Part shown: piece after piece, positions 2,962 to 35,229 of the stretch | How the letters are laid out: the number at the start of each line of letters is the position of its first letter | Position numbering within the stretch: the first letter of the stretch is position 1 | Origin: Candidatus Zambryskibacteria bacterium RIFOXYD1_FULL_40_13 | GTDB lineage: Bacteria; Patescibacteriota; Minisyncoccia; Phycocordibacterales; DATDWN01 | Reading direction: 5' to 3' | Length of the DNA stretch: 61,044 nucleotides | Assembly: GCA_001824295.1 (NCBI GenBank) | Contig: MHWY01000005.1 | Location: 304 to 61,347, forward strand | Position numbers and translations under genes: made by a program | The notes under the pieces: model-generated | The model's database searches: none | What the model was told of the DNA's origin: nothing | The model's input: the letters and a program-made list of their open reading frames with translations, nothing else

Positions 2962-3012
2962 AAAATGTACTAATTACTATACATTATTTGTATTATTTTG
3001 TATAATGGAGCC

Positions 3013-4071
3013 ATGCTGGAGTTGTCTAAATACAACAGGATAAGATTTCATAAGGAAGGAGTTCAGACTAAGTTTATTTTAAAAGCAAGGAAAACTTTAA
3101 ATTTAACTGAGCTGGAGTTATCAAGGAAATTAAAATTGTGTCGACGGACGATTACTGATTGGACAAAAGAAAGAGTTACTATATCTCAAATTGGTGCAAA
3201 TAAAATATCTAGCTTGGCAAAGATATCAATTCCCAAAGGTTACGACATTATTGACTGGAAGGAACACTGGCGAAAGGCGGGGAGGGTGGGGGCTATGACT
3301 AGATTTGTAAGATGTGGAAGGGTTTGTATAGATGAAAAATACCGAAAAATGAAGTGGAATGAATGGTGGAGGAATGTCGGGCAGTACAAAAAGCCACCTC
3401 CAGGTTTTCAGTCTTTGGTAAAGATAAAGATACCACGAAAGAGTAAGTTGCTCGCTGAGTTTATTGGCATTTTGCTTGGAGATGGAAATATATCCCCATA
3501 TTATATTAGTATCACCTTGTCTTCAAAGGAAAAAGAATACATTAAATATATTTGTAAAATTATTGAGAAACTTTTTAGAGTTGTACCAAAGATATTTAAA
3601 CATAAAGAAAAAAAAGCTGTAACTATTGTTGTTAATCGAAAACAACTCGTCGACTTTTGTCAGGAAGTTGGGTTTAAAAAGGGAAACAAGGTGTCCAACC
3701 AGGTTGATATTCCCCAATGGATTAAAAAAAGTAAAATGTATAGTTATGAATGTATCAGGGGCTTGATTGATACTGATGGATGTTTTTTCTTCCATAACTA
3801 TATTGTTAATGGAAAAAAATATTTTTATTTCAAAATAGCTTTTACAAGTGCGTCTATTCCTTTAAGGTTGTCAGTAAAAAAAATTTTGATAAATTCAGGT
3901 TTTGGTGTAAGAATGAGTAAGGCGGGGAAGGGAAAAGGTGGAGATGTTCGTATTGATGGTGGTTTTTATGTGAAAAAATATATAAAAGAAATAGGCTCAC
4001 ACAACAAAAAACACCTAGATAAAATCGAAAAATGGAGGGTTGCTCCGAATGGTAAGGTAGCGGTTTGCTAA
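3013..4071 (+). CDS. LAGLIDADG-family homing endonuclease (free-standing, two-motif)
   Basis: Motifs FIGILLGDGNI and IRGLIDTDGCFFF. ATG at 3013 lies 6 nt after TATAAT (3001-3006); the ORF track begins at TTG 2998. The last 38 nt overlap tRNA-Ser(GCU). Confidence 0.85.
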   Translation: MLELSKYNRIRFHKEGVQTKFILKARKTLNLTELELSRKLKLCRRTITDWTKERVTISQIGANKISSLAKISIPKGYDIIDWKEHWRKAGRVGAMTRFVRCGRVCIDEKYRKMKWNEWWRNVGQYKKPPPGFQSLVKIKIPRKSKLLAEFIGILLGDGNISPYYISITLSSKEKEYIKYICKIIEKLFRVVPKIFKHKEKKAVTIVVNRKQLVDFCQEVGFKKGNKVSNQVDIPQWIKKSKMYSYECIRGLIDTDGCFFFHNYIVNGKKYFYFKIAFTSASIPLRLSVKKILINSGFGVRMSKAGKGKGGDVRIDGGFYVKKYIKEIGSHNKKHLDKIEKWRVAPNGKVAVC

Positions 4072-4120
4072 ACCGTGAGGGTCTTAAAACCCTCTATGGG
4101 TTCGACTCCCATACCCTCCG
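4034..4120 (+). tRNA. tRNA-Ser(GCU)
   Basis: GGAGGGT TG CTCCGAATGGTAAGGT A GCGGT TTGCTAA ACCGT GAGGGTCTTAAAACCCTCTA TGGGT TCGACTC CCATA CCCTCC G. Long variable arm; CCA not encoded. Confidence 0.85.
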
Positions 4121-4158
4121 CAACAAAGACTCAAGAAAGGAGGGTTTTAATTGTGTAT

Positions 4159-4857: not shown

Positions 4858-5988
4858 ATGGCAAACTTTCTTTCAAACCTTGTTGGAGACTTATTTAGTA
4901 AGAAAAACGGAAGTGTACTAGGGATAGACATAGGTTCTTCCTCTATAAAAATAGTCCAGCTAAGCCGTAAAAACGGCCACGCAGTCCTTGATACATACGG
5001 TGAGCTGGCCCTCGGTCCTTACGCTGGCAAAAGTGTGGGTGAAGCCACAAACCTTCCTCCAGAGAAAATTGTAGAAGCAATAGCAGACATGCTGAAGGAA
5101 AAAGAGGTTAACATTACTACTCGCGCCTGCGGAGTAGCCATTCCTTTCTCATCAAGCTTGATGACACCAATAGAGATGCCAATGGTTTCGCCAAAACAGC
5201 TTGAAACCATGATTCCAGTGGAGGCTAGGAAATATATTCCAGTTCCTATTTCAGAGGTTGCTCTGGATTGGTACATCATTCCCAAAGACAAGAATCCTGA
5301 CTCAGAGCAGTTTGTTGACCAGACTGAAAAAGAAAAGTTGCAGAAGATTGAAGTGCTTATTGTGGCTATTCACAACGATACGCTTATTCGTTACAAAGAC
5401 ATCGTTACAAAGAACGCACTAGAAGCTAGTTTCTTTGAGATTGAAATCTTCAGTACCATGCGTTCGGTATTGGAACAAGAACTTACGCCAGCTCTTATTG
5501 TTGACATGGGAGCAACAAGTACAAAGCTATACATTGTGGAGAGGGGAATATTGCGTTCATCACACATGGTTAACCGGGGCTCACAGAGTATAACCGACGA
5601 GCTTTCAAAGTCTTTGGGCATTTCGCTGACAGACGCCGAGAATATAAAACGCGACAAGGGACTTTTGGGAGAAGTGAAGGGGGTAAAAATTAAAGATGTG
5701 GTTACTCTAACCCTTAATTATATTTTTTCCGAATCAAACAGAGTTGTTTTGGCTTATCAGAAGAAATATAACAAGAATGTAAGCAAGGTGATTTTGGTTG
5801 GTGGTGGTAGTGCCTTGAAGGGGGTAGTAGATGTGGCAAAAAATAATTTTCAAACAGAGGTTGTGGCTGGAGACCCATTTTCAAAAGTAGTTGCTCCTGC
5901 ATTTCTTGAGAAAGTATTACATGAAACTGGTCCGGAATTTGCTGTTGCTATCGGTGTTGCACTCCGCCGTCTCCAAGAGCTGGATTAG
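4858..5988 (+). CDS. pilM: Type IV pilus assembly protein PilM (actin-like ATPase fold)
   Basis: 376 aa with N-terminal LGIDIGSSSIKIVQL. It is the first gene of the pilus cluster. Confidence 0.8.
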   Translation: MANFLSNLVGDLFSKKNGSVLGIDIGSSSIKIVQLSRKNGHAVLDTYGELALGPYAGKSVGEATNLPPEKIVEAIADMLKEKEVNITTRACGVAIPFSSSLMTPIEMPMVSPKQLETMIPVEARKYIPVPISEVALDWYIIPKDKNPDSEQFVDQTEKEKLQKIEVLIVAIHNDTLIRYKDIVTKNALEASFFEIEIFSTMRSVLEQELTPALIVDMGATSTKLYIVERGILRSSHMVNRGSQSITDELSKSLGISLTDAENIKRDKGLLGEVKGVKIKDVVTLTLNYIFSESNRVVLAYQKKYNKNVSKVILVGGGSALKGVVDVAKNNFQTEVVAGDPFSKVVAPAFLEKVLHETGPEFAVAIGVALRRLQELD

Positions 5989-7231: not shown

Positions 7232-7597
7232 ATGGCATCACCCAAAATAAAAGGAACAGCGGTAACAATTATTGTCATATTGCTCGTGGGTTTTTTGGGA
7301 TACAAGATTCTCAATAAAGAGCCGGCTGTGATTGACCCAACCCAAGCAACAGCAGACGATAATGCTGGTGTTATCGGCCAGGAGATTTTGAATTCTGTTG
7401 AAAGATTAGAGGTGATTGTTATAGACCAGAAATTCCTTCAGGGTAACCTGTTTGCAAGTCTTAGAGATTTTTCTCAACCTATTTTTGGAGAACCATATGG
7501 TAGAATAAATCCATTCGCACCAATAGGTTCTGATAGCTTCTTGCCTGTGAATGTGCCAAACACAGCACAGTCAACCACCACGGGAGGTGTGCGATAA
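7232..7597 (+). CDS. Hypothetical membrane-anchored protein in the pilus cluster
   Basis: 121 aa with an N-terminal TM helix. It is co-oriented and tightly spaced with pilO and pilB. Confidence 0.35.
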   Translation: MASPKIKGTAVTIIVILLVGFLGYKILNKEPAVIDPTQATADDNAGVIGQEILNSVERLEVIVIDQKFLQGNLFASLRDFSQPIFGEPYGRINPFAPIGSDSFLPVNVPNTAQSTTTGGVR

Positions 7598-20686: not shown

Positions 20687-20715
20687 TTGATTGAATGGTT
20701 TGTTTGTGATACAAT
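20687..20715 (+). promoter_or_regulatory. Putative sigma-70 promoter of the tRNA cluster
   Basis: TTGATT, 17 nt spacer, TACAAT (preceded by TGA), about 28 nt upstream of the first tRNA. Confidence 0.5.
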
Positions 20716-20742
20716 CAAACCGCTGTCAAATATTGGCTCAAT

Positions 20743-20813
20743 AGCGGGGTAGAGAAGCAGTATCTCGGTAGGCTCATAACCTGCAGACCCACGTGCAAAT
20801 CGTGGCCCCGCAA
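20743..20813 (+). tRNA. tRNA(CAU), initiator-like (acceptor AGCGGGG/CCCCGCA with a 1:72 A-A mismatch)
   Basis: AGCGGGG TA GAGA AGCAGTA TCTC G GTAGG CTCATAA CCTGC AGAC CCACG TGCAAAT CGTGG CCCCGCA A. The T-loop is TGC (not TTC) and the D-loop lacks GG. Confidence 0.65.
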
Positions 20814-20848
20814 CAAGAAGAAAAGCTCTCGAAAGAGAGTTTTTCTGT

Positions 20849-21039
20849 TGCGGGGCCAGGATTTGGGAAGGGGTCGGGAAACGGTAGTGAGGAGTGATGT
20901 TATCATTCCGCAAGACCTTGAACGTTTTGTAATCAAAATGTGAAAGGTGTACAGAACCTGTAAGGTTTCCCGTGCACGAAGGCAGTGAGCGAAGTGAGCG
21001 TTGGAAAACCGTCAGTTTCCAAGGAATCCAGGCCCAGCA
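20849..21039 (+). ncRNA. Conserved structured element, copy X1 (unknown class; paralog at 34741-34869)
   Basis: 20/20 and 55/60 identity to X2 in two core blocks (20865-20884, 20966-21025). Closing helix TGCGGGGCCAGGAT/ATCCAGGCCCAGCA is 12/14 paired. An ~80-nt hairpin-rich insert replaces the X2 tetraloop. Confidence 0.4.
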
Positions 21040-21081
21040 GTAGTTTGAGTTTTTGGGTTTTTCTGTTATATTTCCTATATT

Positions 21082-21155
21082 GTCGGCGTAGCTCAGGTAG
21101 TTAGAGCGTGGGACTCATAAGCCCAAGGTCCCCCGTGCAATTCGGGGCGCCGACA
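21082..21155 (+). tRNA. tRNA(CAU), elongator Met or Ile2-type
   Basis: GTCGGCG TA GCTC AGGTAGTTA GAGC G TGGGA CTCATAA GCCCA AGGTC CCCCG TGCAATT CGGGG CGCCGAC A. Confidence 0.8.
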
Positions 21156-21266
21156 CAAAATTAATATTGACTCTTTGAAATTATACGATTTTATGTATAA
21201 TAGGTTGGGTACATCAAAACTATTCCTTAAGAGGAAGAAGGATGTGTTTGAAAGGTACAAAAAGAT

Positions 21267-21550
21267 GCGGTCGTAGCTCAATTTGGTTAGAGCGCGTCCC
21301 TGTAGAATACTGCAGCTTTCTGTCGAAATGGCAGATTGAAACTCTTTGGGATATCGGTGAAGGCTAAATCCTAAGTGCAAACGAAGGACATGCGAATACC
21401 GAGGGAACTCATCTTTTGATGAGAGCACCGTAGAGACTAGATACCAGAGCACCTAACGGGAAACCTATGGTGAAGATATAGTCCACGCCTTTATGAAAAT
21501 ATTGGATAAGTGCACGGACGAGGTTGTGGGTTCAAGTCCCATCGATCGCG
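21267..21550 (+). tRNA. tRNA-Asp(GUC) interrupted by a group I intron in the anticodon loop
   Basis: Exons: GCGGTCG TA GCTC AATTTGGTTA GAGC G CGTCC CTGT | CAC GGACG AGGTT GTGGG TTCAAGT CCCAT CGATCGC G. The spliced loop is CTGTCAC and the discriminator is G. Confidence 0.75.
21304..21512 (+). ncRNA. Group I self-splicing intron (IC3-like, about 209 nt, no ORF)
   Basis: P1 hairpin CTGT|AG-AATA-CTGCAG has a U.G pair at the 5' splice site. R element CCGTAGAGACTAGA and S element GAAGATATAGTCC are present (P7 GACTA/TAGTC). AATCCTAAGTGC and ACCTAACGGGAAACCTATGG resemble the Azoarcus tRNA intron. The intron ends in G. Confidence 0.85.
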
Positions 21551-21555
21551 CATCG

Positions 21556-21587
21556 AAAAATAGAGCCAATAATACGGCTCTATTTTT
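21556..21587 (+). terminator. Rho-independent terminator after the tRNA cluster
   Basis: AAAAATAGAGCC-aataatac-GGCTCTATTTTT. Confidence 0.75.
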
Positions 21588-21625
21588 GTATACTGATTGG
21601 ACGAAATAACTGGTATACTATTTGT

Positions 21626-31666: not shown

Positions 31667-31983
31667 CCCGGTAGTGAAATTTTAGTTCGATTATGTTCTA
31701 TACATACGTATTAAAGAATAAAGATGATAAACTGTATATTGGATATACAAAAGATCTAAAACAAAGATTTGCAGAACATAATCAAGGGTTAAATCTTTCG
31801 ACTAAAGCCAGTCGCCCGTGGAAGATTATTTATTATGAGTGCTGTCTAGATATTAATGATGCAAAGCGAAGAGAGGGGTATTTTAAAACCAGTCAAGGCC
31901 GCAGGTTACTACGACGGAGACTGAAGGAGTATTTTTATAAAATAAGGTCGAAAGATTTAACAAACTAAAATTCTACTACCGGG
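31667..31983 (+). mobile_element. 317-bp element: GIY-YIG ORF between 19-bp terminal inverted repeats, flanked by an ATGA duplication
   Basis: Left TIR CCCGGTAGTGAAATTTTAG (31667-31685). Right TIR CTAAAATTCTACTACCGGG (31965-31983). ATGA at 31663-31666 and 31984-31987. The same terminus family recurs at 32.7, 45.4 and 54.2 kb. Confidence 0.6.
31693..31968 (+). CDS. GIY-YIG (URI-domain) nuclease family protein, 91 aa
   Basis: FYTYVL...LYIGYT...RFAEHN...REGYFK, the classic short GIY-YIG pattern. Confidence 0.85.
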   Translation: MFYTYVLKNKDDKLYIGYTKDLKQRFAEHNQGLNLSTKASRPWKIIYYECCLDINDAKRREGYFKTSQGRRLLRRRLKEYFYKIRSKDLTN

Positions 31984-33869: not shown

Positions 33870-34115
33870 ATGTACACCAAAAAAACCGTTGTCGTAATCG
33901 ACATCAAGGCCACCACCCCGGAAACACTCTACTGTTTCAGGGAATTTCTGAGGACTGAAATGATCGCCCCGATTCTTTCTAGTGATGGATTGGACGAAAA
34001 ACGTGTGGCTTACTTCGCCGGATGCTTCACACCAGAAGCGTCAAGGCGAGTTGAGACGTGGCTACACGAACACGGAATCGATTGTTGCGAGGTGGTGATC
34101 GAGACTACGGAGTGA
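33870..34115 (+). CDS. Small hypothetical protein in a GC-enriched islet
   Basis: 81 aa from ATG 33870, preceded by AAGGGAGAG (Shine-Dalgarno-like) and followed by a GC-rich terminator. Confidence 0.5.
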   Translation: MYTKKTVVVIDIKATTPETLYCFREFLRTEMIAPILSSDGLDEKRVAYFAGCFTPEASRRVETWLHEHGIDCCEVVIETTE

Positions 34116-34121
34116 CACCAG

Positions 34122-34150
34122 GAGCGGACGCGAGTCCGCTCTTCGCTTTC
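34122..34150 (+). terminator. Rho-independent terminator
   Basis: GAGCGGAC-gcga-GTCCGCTC followed by a T-rich tail. Confidence 0.65.
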
Positions 34151-34187
34151 TTGTAAAATCACTATTTTTCGGGTATTGTTTTAACAT

Positions 34188-34248
34188 TGCGAGATCACCC
34201 GTCTCGACTTGGCAAGCTCGCGAGCCGAGGTGGATCTAATGGTAGGAT
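34188..34248 (+). pseudogene. 5' portion (acceptor strand to D-arm) of a split tRNA-Gln-like gene, carrying a 37-nt insert
   Basis: TGCGAGA TC a[CCCGTCTCGACTTGGCAAGCTCGCGAGCCGAGGTGGA]TCTAATGGTAGGAT. TGCGAGA is the exact complement of TCTCGCA at 34703-34709. Confidence 0.5.
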
Positions 34249-34250
34249 AT

Positions 34251-34502
34251 ATGAGTTGTCACGTTTATGTATTAAAAAGCAATAGACATGATAAATCTTA
34301 TGTTGGGTCAACAAATGATCTTGAAAGAAGATTATCAGAACACAATAACGGCAAATCAGCTTATACTTCAAAATATAAACCATGGAGTATAATTTATACT
34401 GAAGAGTTTAGTGTACTAAAGGAAGCTCGGGAAAGAGAGAGGTATTTAAAGGGTCGTAGCGGGAGAAGGTTTTTGAAAAAGATTTTTGATAATAAAAAAT
34501 GA
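34251..34502 (+). CDS. GIY-YIG (URI-domain) nuclease family protein, 83 aa
   Basis: HVYVL...SYVGST...RLSEHN...RERYLK. It is a paralog of the ORF at 31693-31968. The start choice (34251) is uncertain. Confidence 0.8.
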   Translation: MSCHVYVLKSNRHDKSYVGSTNDLERRLSEHNNGKSAYTSKYKPWSIIYTEEFSVLKEARERERYLKGRSGRRFLKKIFDNKK

Positions 34503-34516
34503 CTTCTGCACAAAGC

Positions 34517-34587
34517 TGGGAGATCGTCTAATGGTAGGACGCATCCCTCTGAAGGATGCTATCTTGGTTCGAGTCCAAGTCTCCCAG
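34517..34587 (+). tRNA. tRNA-Gln(CUG)
   Basis: TGGGAGA TC GTCT AATGGTA GGAC G CATCC CTCTGAA GGATG CTAT CTTGG TTCGAGT CCAAG TCTCCCA G. U1-A72 is typical of tRNA-Gln. Confidence 0.85.
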
Positions 34588-34609
34588 CTTTGTGCAGAAG
34601 TCTGAATAA

Positions 34610-34710
34610 TCGTCTAATGGCCCGTCTCGACTTGGCAAGCTCGCGAGCCGAGGCGGATAGGACACATCCCTCTGGAGGATGTTATCTTGGTTCGAGTCCA
34701 AGTCTCGCAG
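34610..34710 (+). pseudogene. tRNA-Gln-like body (positions 8-73) lacking its 5' acceptor strand, with a 37-nt insert in the D-loop
   Basis: TC GTCT AATGG[CCCGTCTCGACTTGGCAAGCTCGCGAGCCGAGGCGGA]TA GGAC A CATCC CTCTGGA GGATG TTAT CTTGG TTCGAGT CCAAG TCTCGCA G. Confidence 0.5.
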
Positions 34711-34740
34711 CTAGGAGTTTTTTGTTAAAAAAACGACGCC

Positions 34741-34869
34741 GCAAGAGACTTGGACTCGAACCAGGGAAGGGGTCGGGAAACGGGAGTTTCCCGTGTAGGA
34801 AGGCAGTGAGCGAAGCGAACGTTGGAAAACCGTCGGTTTCCAAGGAGTGAGAGATCCAAGTCTCCCAGC
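34741..34869 (+). ncRNA. Conserved structured element, copy X2 (unknown class; paralog at 20849-21039)
   Basis: Core blocks at 34764-34783 and 34787-34846 match X1. Hairpins CGGGAAAC-GGGA-GTTTCCCG and TTGGAAAACC-GTC-GGTTTCCAA. Closing helix GAGACTTGGA/TCCAAGTCTC. Confidence 0.4.
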
Positions 34870-34926
34870 CCTGCTCAGAATTAACCTTCTAAACCCTCGT
34901 GAGCTGAAGTTTGGTATAATGTAAAC

Positions 34927-35229
34927 ATGTTTAAAAGATATATCTCATATTTAAGAAATAACCCAGAAAAGTATTGGTTTAGGGCCAAGTGGTACGGGTG
35001 GGGATGGACCCCAGCTAGGTGGCAGGGCTGGCTTGTGACTCTCATTTATATTATCGGGATACTTTCCTTTGCTTTGACGCTTGATGAAAATACGCAGGAC
35101 AAGGAGGCAGTCTTCCGCCTTATTTTGCCTGTCGTGTTACTCACTGGTATTTTTTTGTGGATTGCTTACAAGACGGGCGAGAAGCCACACTGGCATTGGG
35201 GCCCACCAGATGACAAGGATTTGATATAA
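34927..35229 (+). CDS. Small membrane protein (hypothetical)
   Basis: 100 aa with two TM helices. TATAAT (34915-34920) lies 6 nt upstream of the ATG. Confidence 0.5.
   Translation: MFKRYISYLRNNPEKYWFRAKWYGWGWTPARWQGWLVTLIYIIGILSFALTLDENTQDKEAVFRLILPVVLLTGIFLWIAYKTGEKPHWHWGPPDDKDLI

Follow-up and report, generated by a model that had tools for sequence, protein, structure and literature searches.

The window, by which we mean the whole stretch of 61,044 nucleotides from Candidatus Zambryskibacteria bacterium RIFOXYD1_FULL_40_13 analysed here, carries two tRNA-Gln(CUG) sequences in close succession on its + strand. The first is an intact gene (34517–34588). The second, a tRNA-like body at 34606–34710, is an insertion-interrupted tRNA-Gln gene whose D-loop is split by a 38-nt repeat (34621–34658) and which lies directly 5′ of an element that we call X2. 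Perfect 16-nt inverted repeats (GACTTCTGCACAAAGC and GCTTTGTGCAGAAGTC) flank the intact gene and lengthen its acceptor stem by 16 bp (34501–34604; fold z-score −9.2). The resident gene is fragmented over 34189–34712: its 5′ acceptor strand TGCGAGA and a D-arm lie at 34189–34249, followed by a GIY-YIG open reading frame (ORF; 34251–34503), the intact tRNA-Gln and the old remainder at 34606–34710. Its acceptor strands TGCGAGA and TCTCGCA are as in the intact homologues at loci L432 and L266. Both D-arm copies are split by the 38-nt direct repeat (34198–34235 and 34621–34658, 37/38 identical), and it looks as if a cassette with a homing-type nuclease and a replacement tRNA had landed in the D-arm of the resident gene.

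X2 lies just behind the real gene end, DR1 (34688–34711, + strand), which comprises the T-loop, the 3′ strands of the T-stem and acceptor stem and the discriminator of the resident tRNA-Gln body. Within it, segment a (34688–34706; TGGTTCGAGTCCAAGTCTC) is the partner of an antisense arm, a′ (34745–34763, + strand), which is its perfect reverse complement; by chance, an inverted repeat of 19 nt without mismatch would arise within about 60 nt with a probability of roughly 1e-9. Positions 34697–34711 recur as a direct repeat, DR2 (34855–34869, + strand; TCCAAGTCTCCCAGC), with 14 of 15 bases identical, and DR2 is in turn identical to 34574–34588, the 3′ end of the intact tRNA-Gln(CUG). The antisense copy and the second tRNA 3′ end described by an earlier, sequence-only reading of this DNA are therefore both exact. 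Since the first ten bases of a′ (34745–34754) also pair with 34855–34864 in DR2, the X2 core is closed by a helix, P1, of which DR2 provides the 3′ strand.

Between DR1 and a′ lies a spacer (34712–34744, + strand) with an A/T-only hairpin (GTTTTTTGTTAAAAAAAC), a position occupied in most other copies by an intrinsic terminator or a GAGCGAAGCGAA-type mini-hairpin. The conserved core follows a′ (34764–34844, + strand; 105 bits with R1, the covariance model of the core) and contains a purine-rich joiner (GGGAAGGGGT), hairpin P2 (34774–34781 with 34786–34793, GGGA loop), a second joiner (TGTAGGAAGGCA), an optional hairpin P3 (34806–34820, GAA loop and tandem G·A) and hairpin P4 (34822–34828 with 34837–34843), all on the + strand. 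A conserved 3′ tail (GAGTGAGAGA; 34845–34854, + strand), read from the sequences as an altered T-loop copy, leads into DR2. It stands opposite the 3′ part of a′ (CTCGAAC), with Watson–Crick pairs flanking a tandem G·A/A·G.

A sister copy, X1, lies on the + strand behind tRNA-Met(CAU) (20743–20814) and spans 20848–21039, with a′ at 20848–20864, the core at 20865–21023 and DR2 at 21025–21039. Only two of the seven window tRNAs, tRNA-Met 20743–20814 and tRNA-Gln, are followed by both an inverted and a direct copy of their 3′ end. The proposed core match between X1 and X2 is borne out: the blocks GGGAAGGGGTCGGGAAACGG and GAAGGCAGTGAGCGAAG occur in the window at X1 and X2 only, shuffled windows gave on average 0.00 and 0.08 matches, respectively, and no shuffle contained two or more. 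The segment GCAGTGAGCGAAGCGAACG, which had been taken as a conserved block, is the optional hairpin P3 of variable length. We clustered cores by genome and by site in an attempt to detect recent intragenomic jumps, but the cores (77/84 positions identical between X1 and X2 and likewise between X2 and L083a) are too conserved to yield a signal.

The X1 core carries an extra module of about 80 nt in its P2 loop (20885–20966), which is structured (…CCGCAAGACC…AAGGTGTAC…CCTGTAAGG). A homologue occupies the same loop of the copy at the rpsI site of L389 (about 1990–2080), an X1-type module lies in the opposite orientation in L383 (about 1960–2050), and L306 has a similar sequence between tRNAs (about 5410–5580). 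The module may be a second, nested mini-element.

The region 21268–21550 of the window holds a tRNA gene with a group I intron in its anticodon loop; the Rfam model Intron_gpI matches 21294–21505 with 37 bits (E = 1e-7), which is under the gathering score, and the gene escaped both ARAGORN and the gathering scan. Two tRNA-Ser genes (2872–2961, − strand; 4034–4121, + strand) enclose an ORF that encodes a LAGLIDADG homing-endonuclease domain (2998–4071) and extends into the beginning of the second tRNA gene. Further small GIY-YIG (YhbQ-like) ORFs occur near tRNAs at about 31677–31965 of the window, in L083 (4412–4718) and in L186, L266, L303 and L430; some of them are close to X copies, others are not. 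We considered a tie between the X elements and a neighbouring GIY-YIG gene and rejected it, as homologues are found in a few X loci and their adjacency is inconsistent.

Public genomes and metagenomes were searched with sequence patterns and subsequently with R1. Exact DNA patterns of 17–19 bases recovered few copies because the middle block is a variable hairpin, and a pattern built on P4 succeeded. This search yielded 72 copies, all in assemblies of Patescibacteria (CPR) labelled Saccharibacteria, Paceibacteria, Nomura-, Kaiser-, Zambryski-, Campbell- or Taylorbacteria. No Rfam 15 family matches the element: the gathering scan of the window returned tRNAs only, and E-value scans of 34100–34950 and 20700–21620 returned only tRNA, spurious miRNA hairpin matches to the palindrome that a and a′ form and, unrelated to the element, the group I intron at 21294–21505. 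A known Rfam family, which the sequence-only reading had named as grounds for abandoning its interpretation, is thus absent. No copy was found among phage (INPHARED) or plasmid (PLSDB) sequences by blastn or among IMG/VR sequences, so we discarded a phage or plasmid origin, and the literature that we searched contained no description of such a family. X2 therefore appears to belong to a new, previously undescribed family of small gene-less CPR inserts.

Across the family, the core measures 65–85 nt and consists of hairpins P2 and P4, the optional P3 and purine-rich joiners. P2 and P4 are 98.9% paired, with eight pairs changed on both sides and 15 G·U cells, and slid controls collapse. P3 varies in length or is absent, as in the ‘mini’ copies, and carries GAA or GNRA-type loops, often with tandem G·A. 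The G·U pairs and GNRA-type loops favour an RNA made from the + strand, as judged from the aligned sequences, and the strand assignment is moderately supported (15 G·U cells versus 11 non-pairs). Two simpler accounts of the core were tried and set aside. A peptide of 9–14 codons does not fit, as its stop is not conserved outside the tRNA subfamily and the variation is compensatory for P4, not synonymous; there is also no ORF between the repeats of the element (about 110–250 bp). An intrinsic terminator alone does not fit either: the spacer is often such a hairpin, but the conserved 65–85-nt core follows it and several copies are terminator-free. Locus L250 holds two copies (436–604 and 7335–7503) 6.9 kb apart within a larger duplicated segment, each made of a truncated core and then a second, divergent core in nested or tandem arrangement.

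The order of parts is the same in all 60 copies that we inspected: gene end (DR1), spacer or terminator, a′, core, tail and DR2, with the intact gene always on the 5′ side and a host terminator after DR2. In 50 of 60 copies from other genomes, the match of a′ (12–22 nt) to the upstream gene end exceeds the 99th percentile of shuffled controls, as does that of DR2 in 45 of the 60. The duplication measures 14–57 bp, and the outer arms vary by site and equal the local gene end. A tRNA lies upstream on the same strand in 36 of 61 copies (about 60%, ARAGORN), representing more than 20 anticodon types of the isotypes Met, Gln, Arg, Asp, Phe, Cys, Thr, Gly, Pro, Leu, Ser, Val, Tyr and Glu. At these sites, the end of a′ is always the complement of the T-loop start, and the direct repeat (14–30 nt) runs from the T-loop or T-stem to 2–3 nt past the tRNA. 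The remaining copies, about 40%, lie at the ends of protein genes, namely at the 3′ ends of rpsI and of genes for small Zn-ribbon proteins and at opposite-strand 5′ ends of glycosyltransferase and RNase H genes. The flanks thus mirror the local gene end, not a tRNA as such.

These observations sort the earlier interpretation into parts. It was right about a specific architecture, which recurs at many unrelated genes with flanks matching the local gene each time, about the duplication of the target end and about the lack of an Rfam family. The element is not specific to tRNAs, however: copies away from tRNAs, which it had held to be damaging, make up about 40%. The weightier objection that it had named, copies whose flanks fail to mirror their neighbour, does not apply, since the flanks do mirror it. 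Selection for pairing with the tRNA fails as a general explanation, since a′ has the same sense as the mRNA at opposite-strand 5′ sites and pairing with the RNA of the gene therefore cannot be the general reason for its presence. The putative tRNA 3′-end mimic is better described as the second copy of an att-like direct repeat of the insertion site, doubling as the 3′ strand of P1, than as a dedicated mimic. At the glycosyltransferase and RNase H 5′ ends of L167, L168, L041, L311 and L193, the displaced old start opens an ORF of about 55 codons. It crosses the element in antisense without meeting a stop and terminates at the new start codon or no more than a few bases from it; in L167 and L168, the two overlap as ATGA. 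Such an arrangement points to translational coupling, by which expression of the host gene would be maintained.

The rpsI site allows filled and empty loci to be compared. Only five of the 80 closest loci contain the element. The empty locus L339 reads rpsI–stop–T2–grpE, T2 being a terminator, and the filled locus L336 reads rpsI (with DR1, 22 nt including the stop)–T1–a′–core–DR2–T2–grpE. As T2 is homologous to the terminator of empty relatives, the terminator after DR2 is ancestral. The spacer hairpin T1 is the same in four of the five filled loci, and L389 has a related hairpin with the same stem. The comparison fits the earlier proposal that the target end is duplicated on insertion. From T1 to the tail (138 nt), the element is 91–97% identical among L336, L337, L359 and L383, whereas the adjacent rpsI body is 73–83% identical; conservation so far above that of its neighbour indicates horizontal transfer. 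Locus L341, whose S9 is 95% identical to that of L336, retains T1 and the 3′ half of T2 (1882–1960) with no a′, core or DR2, and is probably the scar of a loss by deletion.

At the tRNA-Gln site, relatives of the window (FtsX about 85% identical) differ as well: L434 is empty and L266 has a mini-core copy. Behind the tRNA-Gln of L432 (5827–6000) lie a spacer hairpin, an antisense arm split by a small hairpin, a two-hairpin core, a GGAGGAGAGAT tail and DR2; P1 spans the whole acceptor 3′ strand and the fold z-score is −5.6. As R1 misses this divergent core, the count of 72 copies understates the superfamily.

Taken together, the core is of RNA type, the architecture is constant over many targets, the gene end is duplicated, the spacer hairpin travels with the element, and the element spreads horizontally and is lost. 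We consider that X2 is probably a non-autonomous, horizontally mobile module that inserts at gene ends and encodes a predicted structured RNA. The tRNA 3′-end mimic is then best explained as a duplicated segment of the insertion site and the antisense copy as the 5′ strand of P1. Several considerations weigh against a mobile module. The element has no associated transposase, integrase or reverse transcriptase, and the strand of its RNA is moderately supported. Spread between genomes at a single site could be ordinary homologous recombination instead of active transposition, the high conservation could stem in part from strong selection on an RNA useful to the host, and colonization of a new site requires that both a′ and DR2 be rewritten.

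The behaviour of a′ bears on the first alternative, in which the element is a cis-acting RNA switch or processing module of the host. In addition to P1, a′ can form a longer, usually perfect helix, P0, with the real gene end, and P0 dominates the predicted fold of the co-transcript. As a switch, a′ would toggle between P0 and P1, its pairing with the decoy DR2: P0 would block folding of the tRNA or mask the mRNA end, and P1 would be stabilized by the folded core, perhaps bound by a ligand or protein, so that maturation or stability of the upstream transcript is controlled. That both helices can form, that the core resembles an aptamer in size and junction topology and that a′ tracks DR1 agree with this idea. 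So does transcription. No sigma-70-like promoter site precedes a′ in X1 or X2, which led us to dismiss a promoter of their own for the window copies, and promoter-like sites flank the tRNA-Met/X1 unit; transcription is thus probably read-through from the host gene, and in many copies no terminator separates a′ from the tRNA. Like riboswitches with P1 switching helices, the element has a junction-type core closed by a helix, one strand of which has an alternative partner. Unlike riboswitches, it lies downstream of genes, its alternative partner is the coding or tRNA sequence itself, and it is mobile and patchy. Against the switch, moreover, stand its patchy presence among close relatives and apparent loss at one locus, its conservation in excess of rpsI, the mRNA sense of a′ at opposite-strand 5′ ends, the terminator that separates gene and a′ in most copies, and its presence at only two of the seven window tRNAs. 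On balance, we regard a host switch as unlikely.

The tracking of DR1 by a′ is itself informative about what follows insertion. In the rpsI copies of L240, L298 and L042, DR2 represents a different synonymous allele and a′ matches DR1 perfectly; in the recently transferred copy of L359, a′ is still like the arm of the donor. Both observations indicate that a′ is aligned to the host gene end after arrival. DR2 usually has one built-in imperfection opposite a′: a U·U mismatch in the rpsI lineage, a GTGAGAT sequence in place of the T-loop that gives tandem G·A in most tRNA copies, and other single-base changes or insertions elsewhere. We do not claim a compensatory P1 change between L336 and L359, which a re-alignment would have to reach through a 2-nt register shift.

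A second alternative holds that the elements are attR-side scars, or cis-mobilizable mini-elements, of integrase islands entering tRNA 3′ ends. Tyrosine integrases classically have their attB in the segment that reaches from the T-loop or T-stem to slightly beyond the tRNA 3′ end, and the direct repeat of the element spans this segment, with the displaced copy distal and the gene restored. Islands and prophages of tyrosine integrases likewise insert in the tRNA segment from the T-loop to the 3′ end, or at the end of a protein gene, carry that segment as a direct repeat on either side and leave the gene intact, with drift of the distal copy; our element, too, bears the tRNA 3′ segment in direct repeat at its two ends. 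Unlike such islands, however, it has only 110–250 bp between its repeats, with neither integrase nor cargo, and its conserved core is the same at every site. More than 25 unrelated targets, protein-gene ends among them, are incompatible with one sequence-specific integrase. The element further holds an internal antisense copy of its target, for which such att sites have no counterpart, and a predicted structured RNA. An origin in integrase islands is accordingly a poor prospect.

A third possibility is a repeat acting purely at the DNA level, whose core is a protein-binding or single-stranded DNA hairpin (REP- or attC-like) and whose flanking inverted repeat arises from palindrome extension at terminators. 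Inverted repeats can be lengthened and made perfect by quasipalindrome correction through template switching, an established mutational mechanism, the spacers are themselves hairpins, and GCGAAGC, a known and very stable DNA mini-hairpin, recurs in the element. Yet the compensatory changes, G·U pairs on one strand only, GNRA-type loops and tandem G·A are typical of RNA, the pairing of arm and DR2 in L041 and L167 relies on two G·U pairs (C·A on the other strand), and palindrome extension leaves DR2 unexplained. We hold a pure DNA repeat to be very unlikely.

Known mobile and repeated DNA offers partial parallels to the element. With MITEs, Correia, REP/BIME and RPE sequences and the group IIC introns found after terminators, the element shares small size, non-autonomy, multiple copies and frequent placement at terminators, and, like MITEs, palindromic repeats and group IIC introns, it is probably co-transcribed with neighbouring genes and is tolerated by them. 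In contrast to them, its ends are copies of the local target and not conserved inverted repeats, and its interior behaves as a covarying RNA; it has neither the conserved terminal inverted repeats nor the short duplication of fixed length (here 14–57 bp) by which MITEs are defined. The folded single-stranded attP of CTX-phi and the attC of integrons offer a further parallel, with two inverted attachment copies about 70–150 nt apart, a stem imitating a double-stranded target and a built-in imperfection. However, the attachment sequence of the element varies between copies, which sets it apart from dif or a core site, a single-stranded replicon is not known and viral collections gave no matches.

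Finally, a small self- or reverse-splicing ribozyme, with a′ as an internal guide that would pair to the left and right of the insertion point, as P1/P10 of group I or EBS/IBS of group II introns do, is in our view highly improbable and, as a group I or II intron proper, rejected on size, missing model matches and boundary bases: in the largest tRNA subfamily, a′ does span the left edge of the direct repeat (T-loop part outside, stem part inside) in the order of a group I guide sequence, but a 65–85-nt core is far smaller than any group I or II catalytic core and lacks the P3–P9 core of group I, the Rfam intron models are silent on X elements yet detect the intron at 21294–21505, there is no conserved terminal G or U·G pair at a 5′ splice site (the tail ends in G or A and the boundary pair is A–U), splicing in that subfamily would yield a tRNA without its T-loop, and the gene is already complete without splicing.

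We return to the mobile gene-end module, the reading that we prefer. It would enter by recombination within a short segment at the gene end. DR2 always opens with the first bases of a and closes shortly beyond the boundary of the gene, that is, 2–3 nt beyond a tRNA 3′ end, through a stop codon or through a start codon with its Shine–Dalgarno sequence, and because it runs past this boundary the gene survives. The gene would be kept intact by duplication or replacement of its end together with the terminator of the module or, at 5′ ends, by the translationally coupled upstream ORF. The arm a′ would keep the element's version of the attachment segment double-stranded and might recognize the target by base pairing, with the chemistry supplied by an enzyme encoded elsewhere. 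No cognate recombinase or nuclease ORF lies within or beside the inspected copies, whose neighbours are housekeeping genes, and no transposase, integrase or reverse transcriptase accompanies the element or occurs among the 20 largest ORFs of the window. We looked for a partner enzyme among these and rejected them, as they are housekeeping, pilus or restriction–modification genes. After transfer, the match between a′ and the gene end may be maintained by selection or by quasipalindrome template-switch correction. The RNA would probably be made by read-through from the host gene. At tRNA sites, P1 repeats the base pairing of the acceptor and T stems in the adjacent tRNA, so that the predicted RNA could be released and finished by RNase P, RNase Z and the CCA-adding enzyme.

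That a′ serves as a target-recognition device is a tentative suggestion. Its fullest form is doubtful: a′ would be a true guide, with which the element finds any gene end by base pairing and inserts with duplication of the paired segment through a host or unlinked enzyme, travelling as RNA or as a folded single strand, possibly as a viroid-sized circle of about 150–200 nt formed between DR1 and DR2. The nearest relatives in design are the IS110 bridge RNA, the IS1111 seekRNA and the omega RNAs of IscB and TnpB, which likewise set a variable, target-matching segment (here a′, in 50 of 60 copies) on a constant scaffold (here the conserved core). The element departs from them in several respects. 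No gene for a DEDD recombinase, IscB or TnpB is adjacent to it, its guide-like arm is one contiguous stretch of 12–22 nt at the 5′ edge, this arm is paired intramolecularly to a duplicated copy of the target with a duplication of 14–57 bp, and it matches no Rfam model (HEARO, for example).

CPR genomes measure about 1 Mb and have few known mobile elements. If the family is indeed one of gene-end modules, widespread selfish or semi-domesticated RNA modules colonize the most conserved gene ends of these bacteria without harming them. Target-derived antisense and sense arms on a constant scaffold are the signature of a site choice guided by nucleic acid, here with no associated protein gene, and identification of the partner enzyme, or proof that the element works without one, could uncover an insertion chemistry or a type of guide RNA that is new. 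If a′ does act as a true guide, the element would amount to an insertion system that is natural, programmable and free of protein genes, and that rewrites its own guide at each site. Some gains hold even for a mundane mechanism: the family accounts for odd fragments of tRNA genes and for gene ends present in duplicate in CPR assemblies, supplies Rfam with an RNA family that it lacks and provides a marker of horizontal exchange between CPR lineages.
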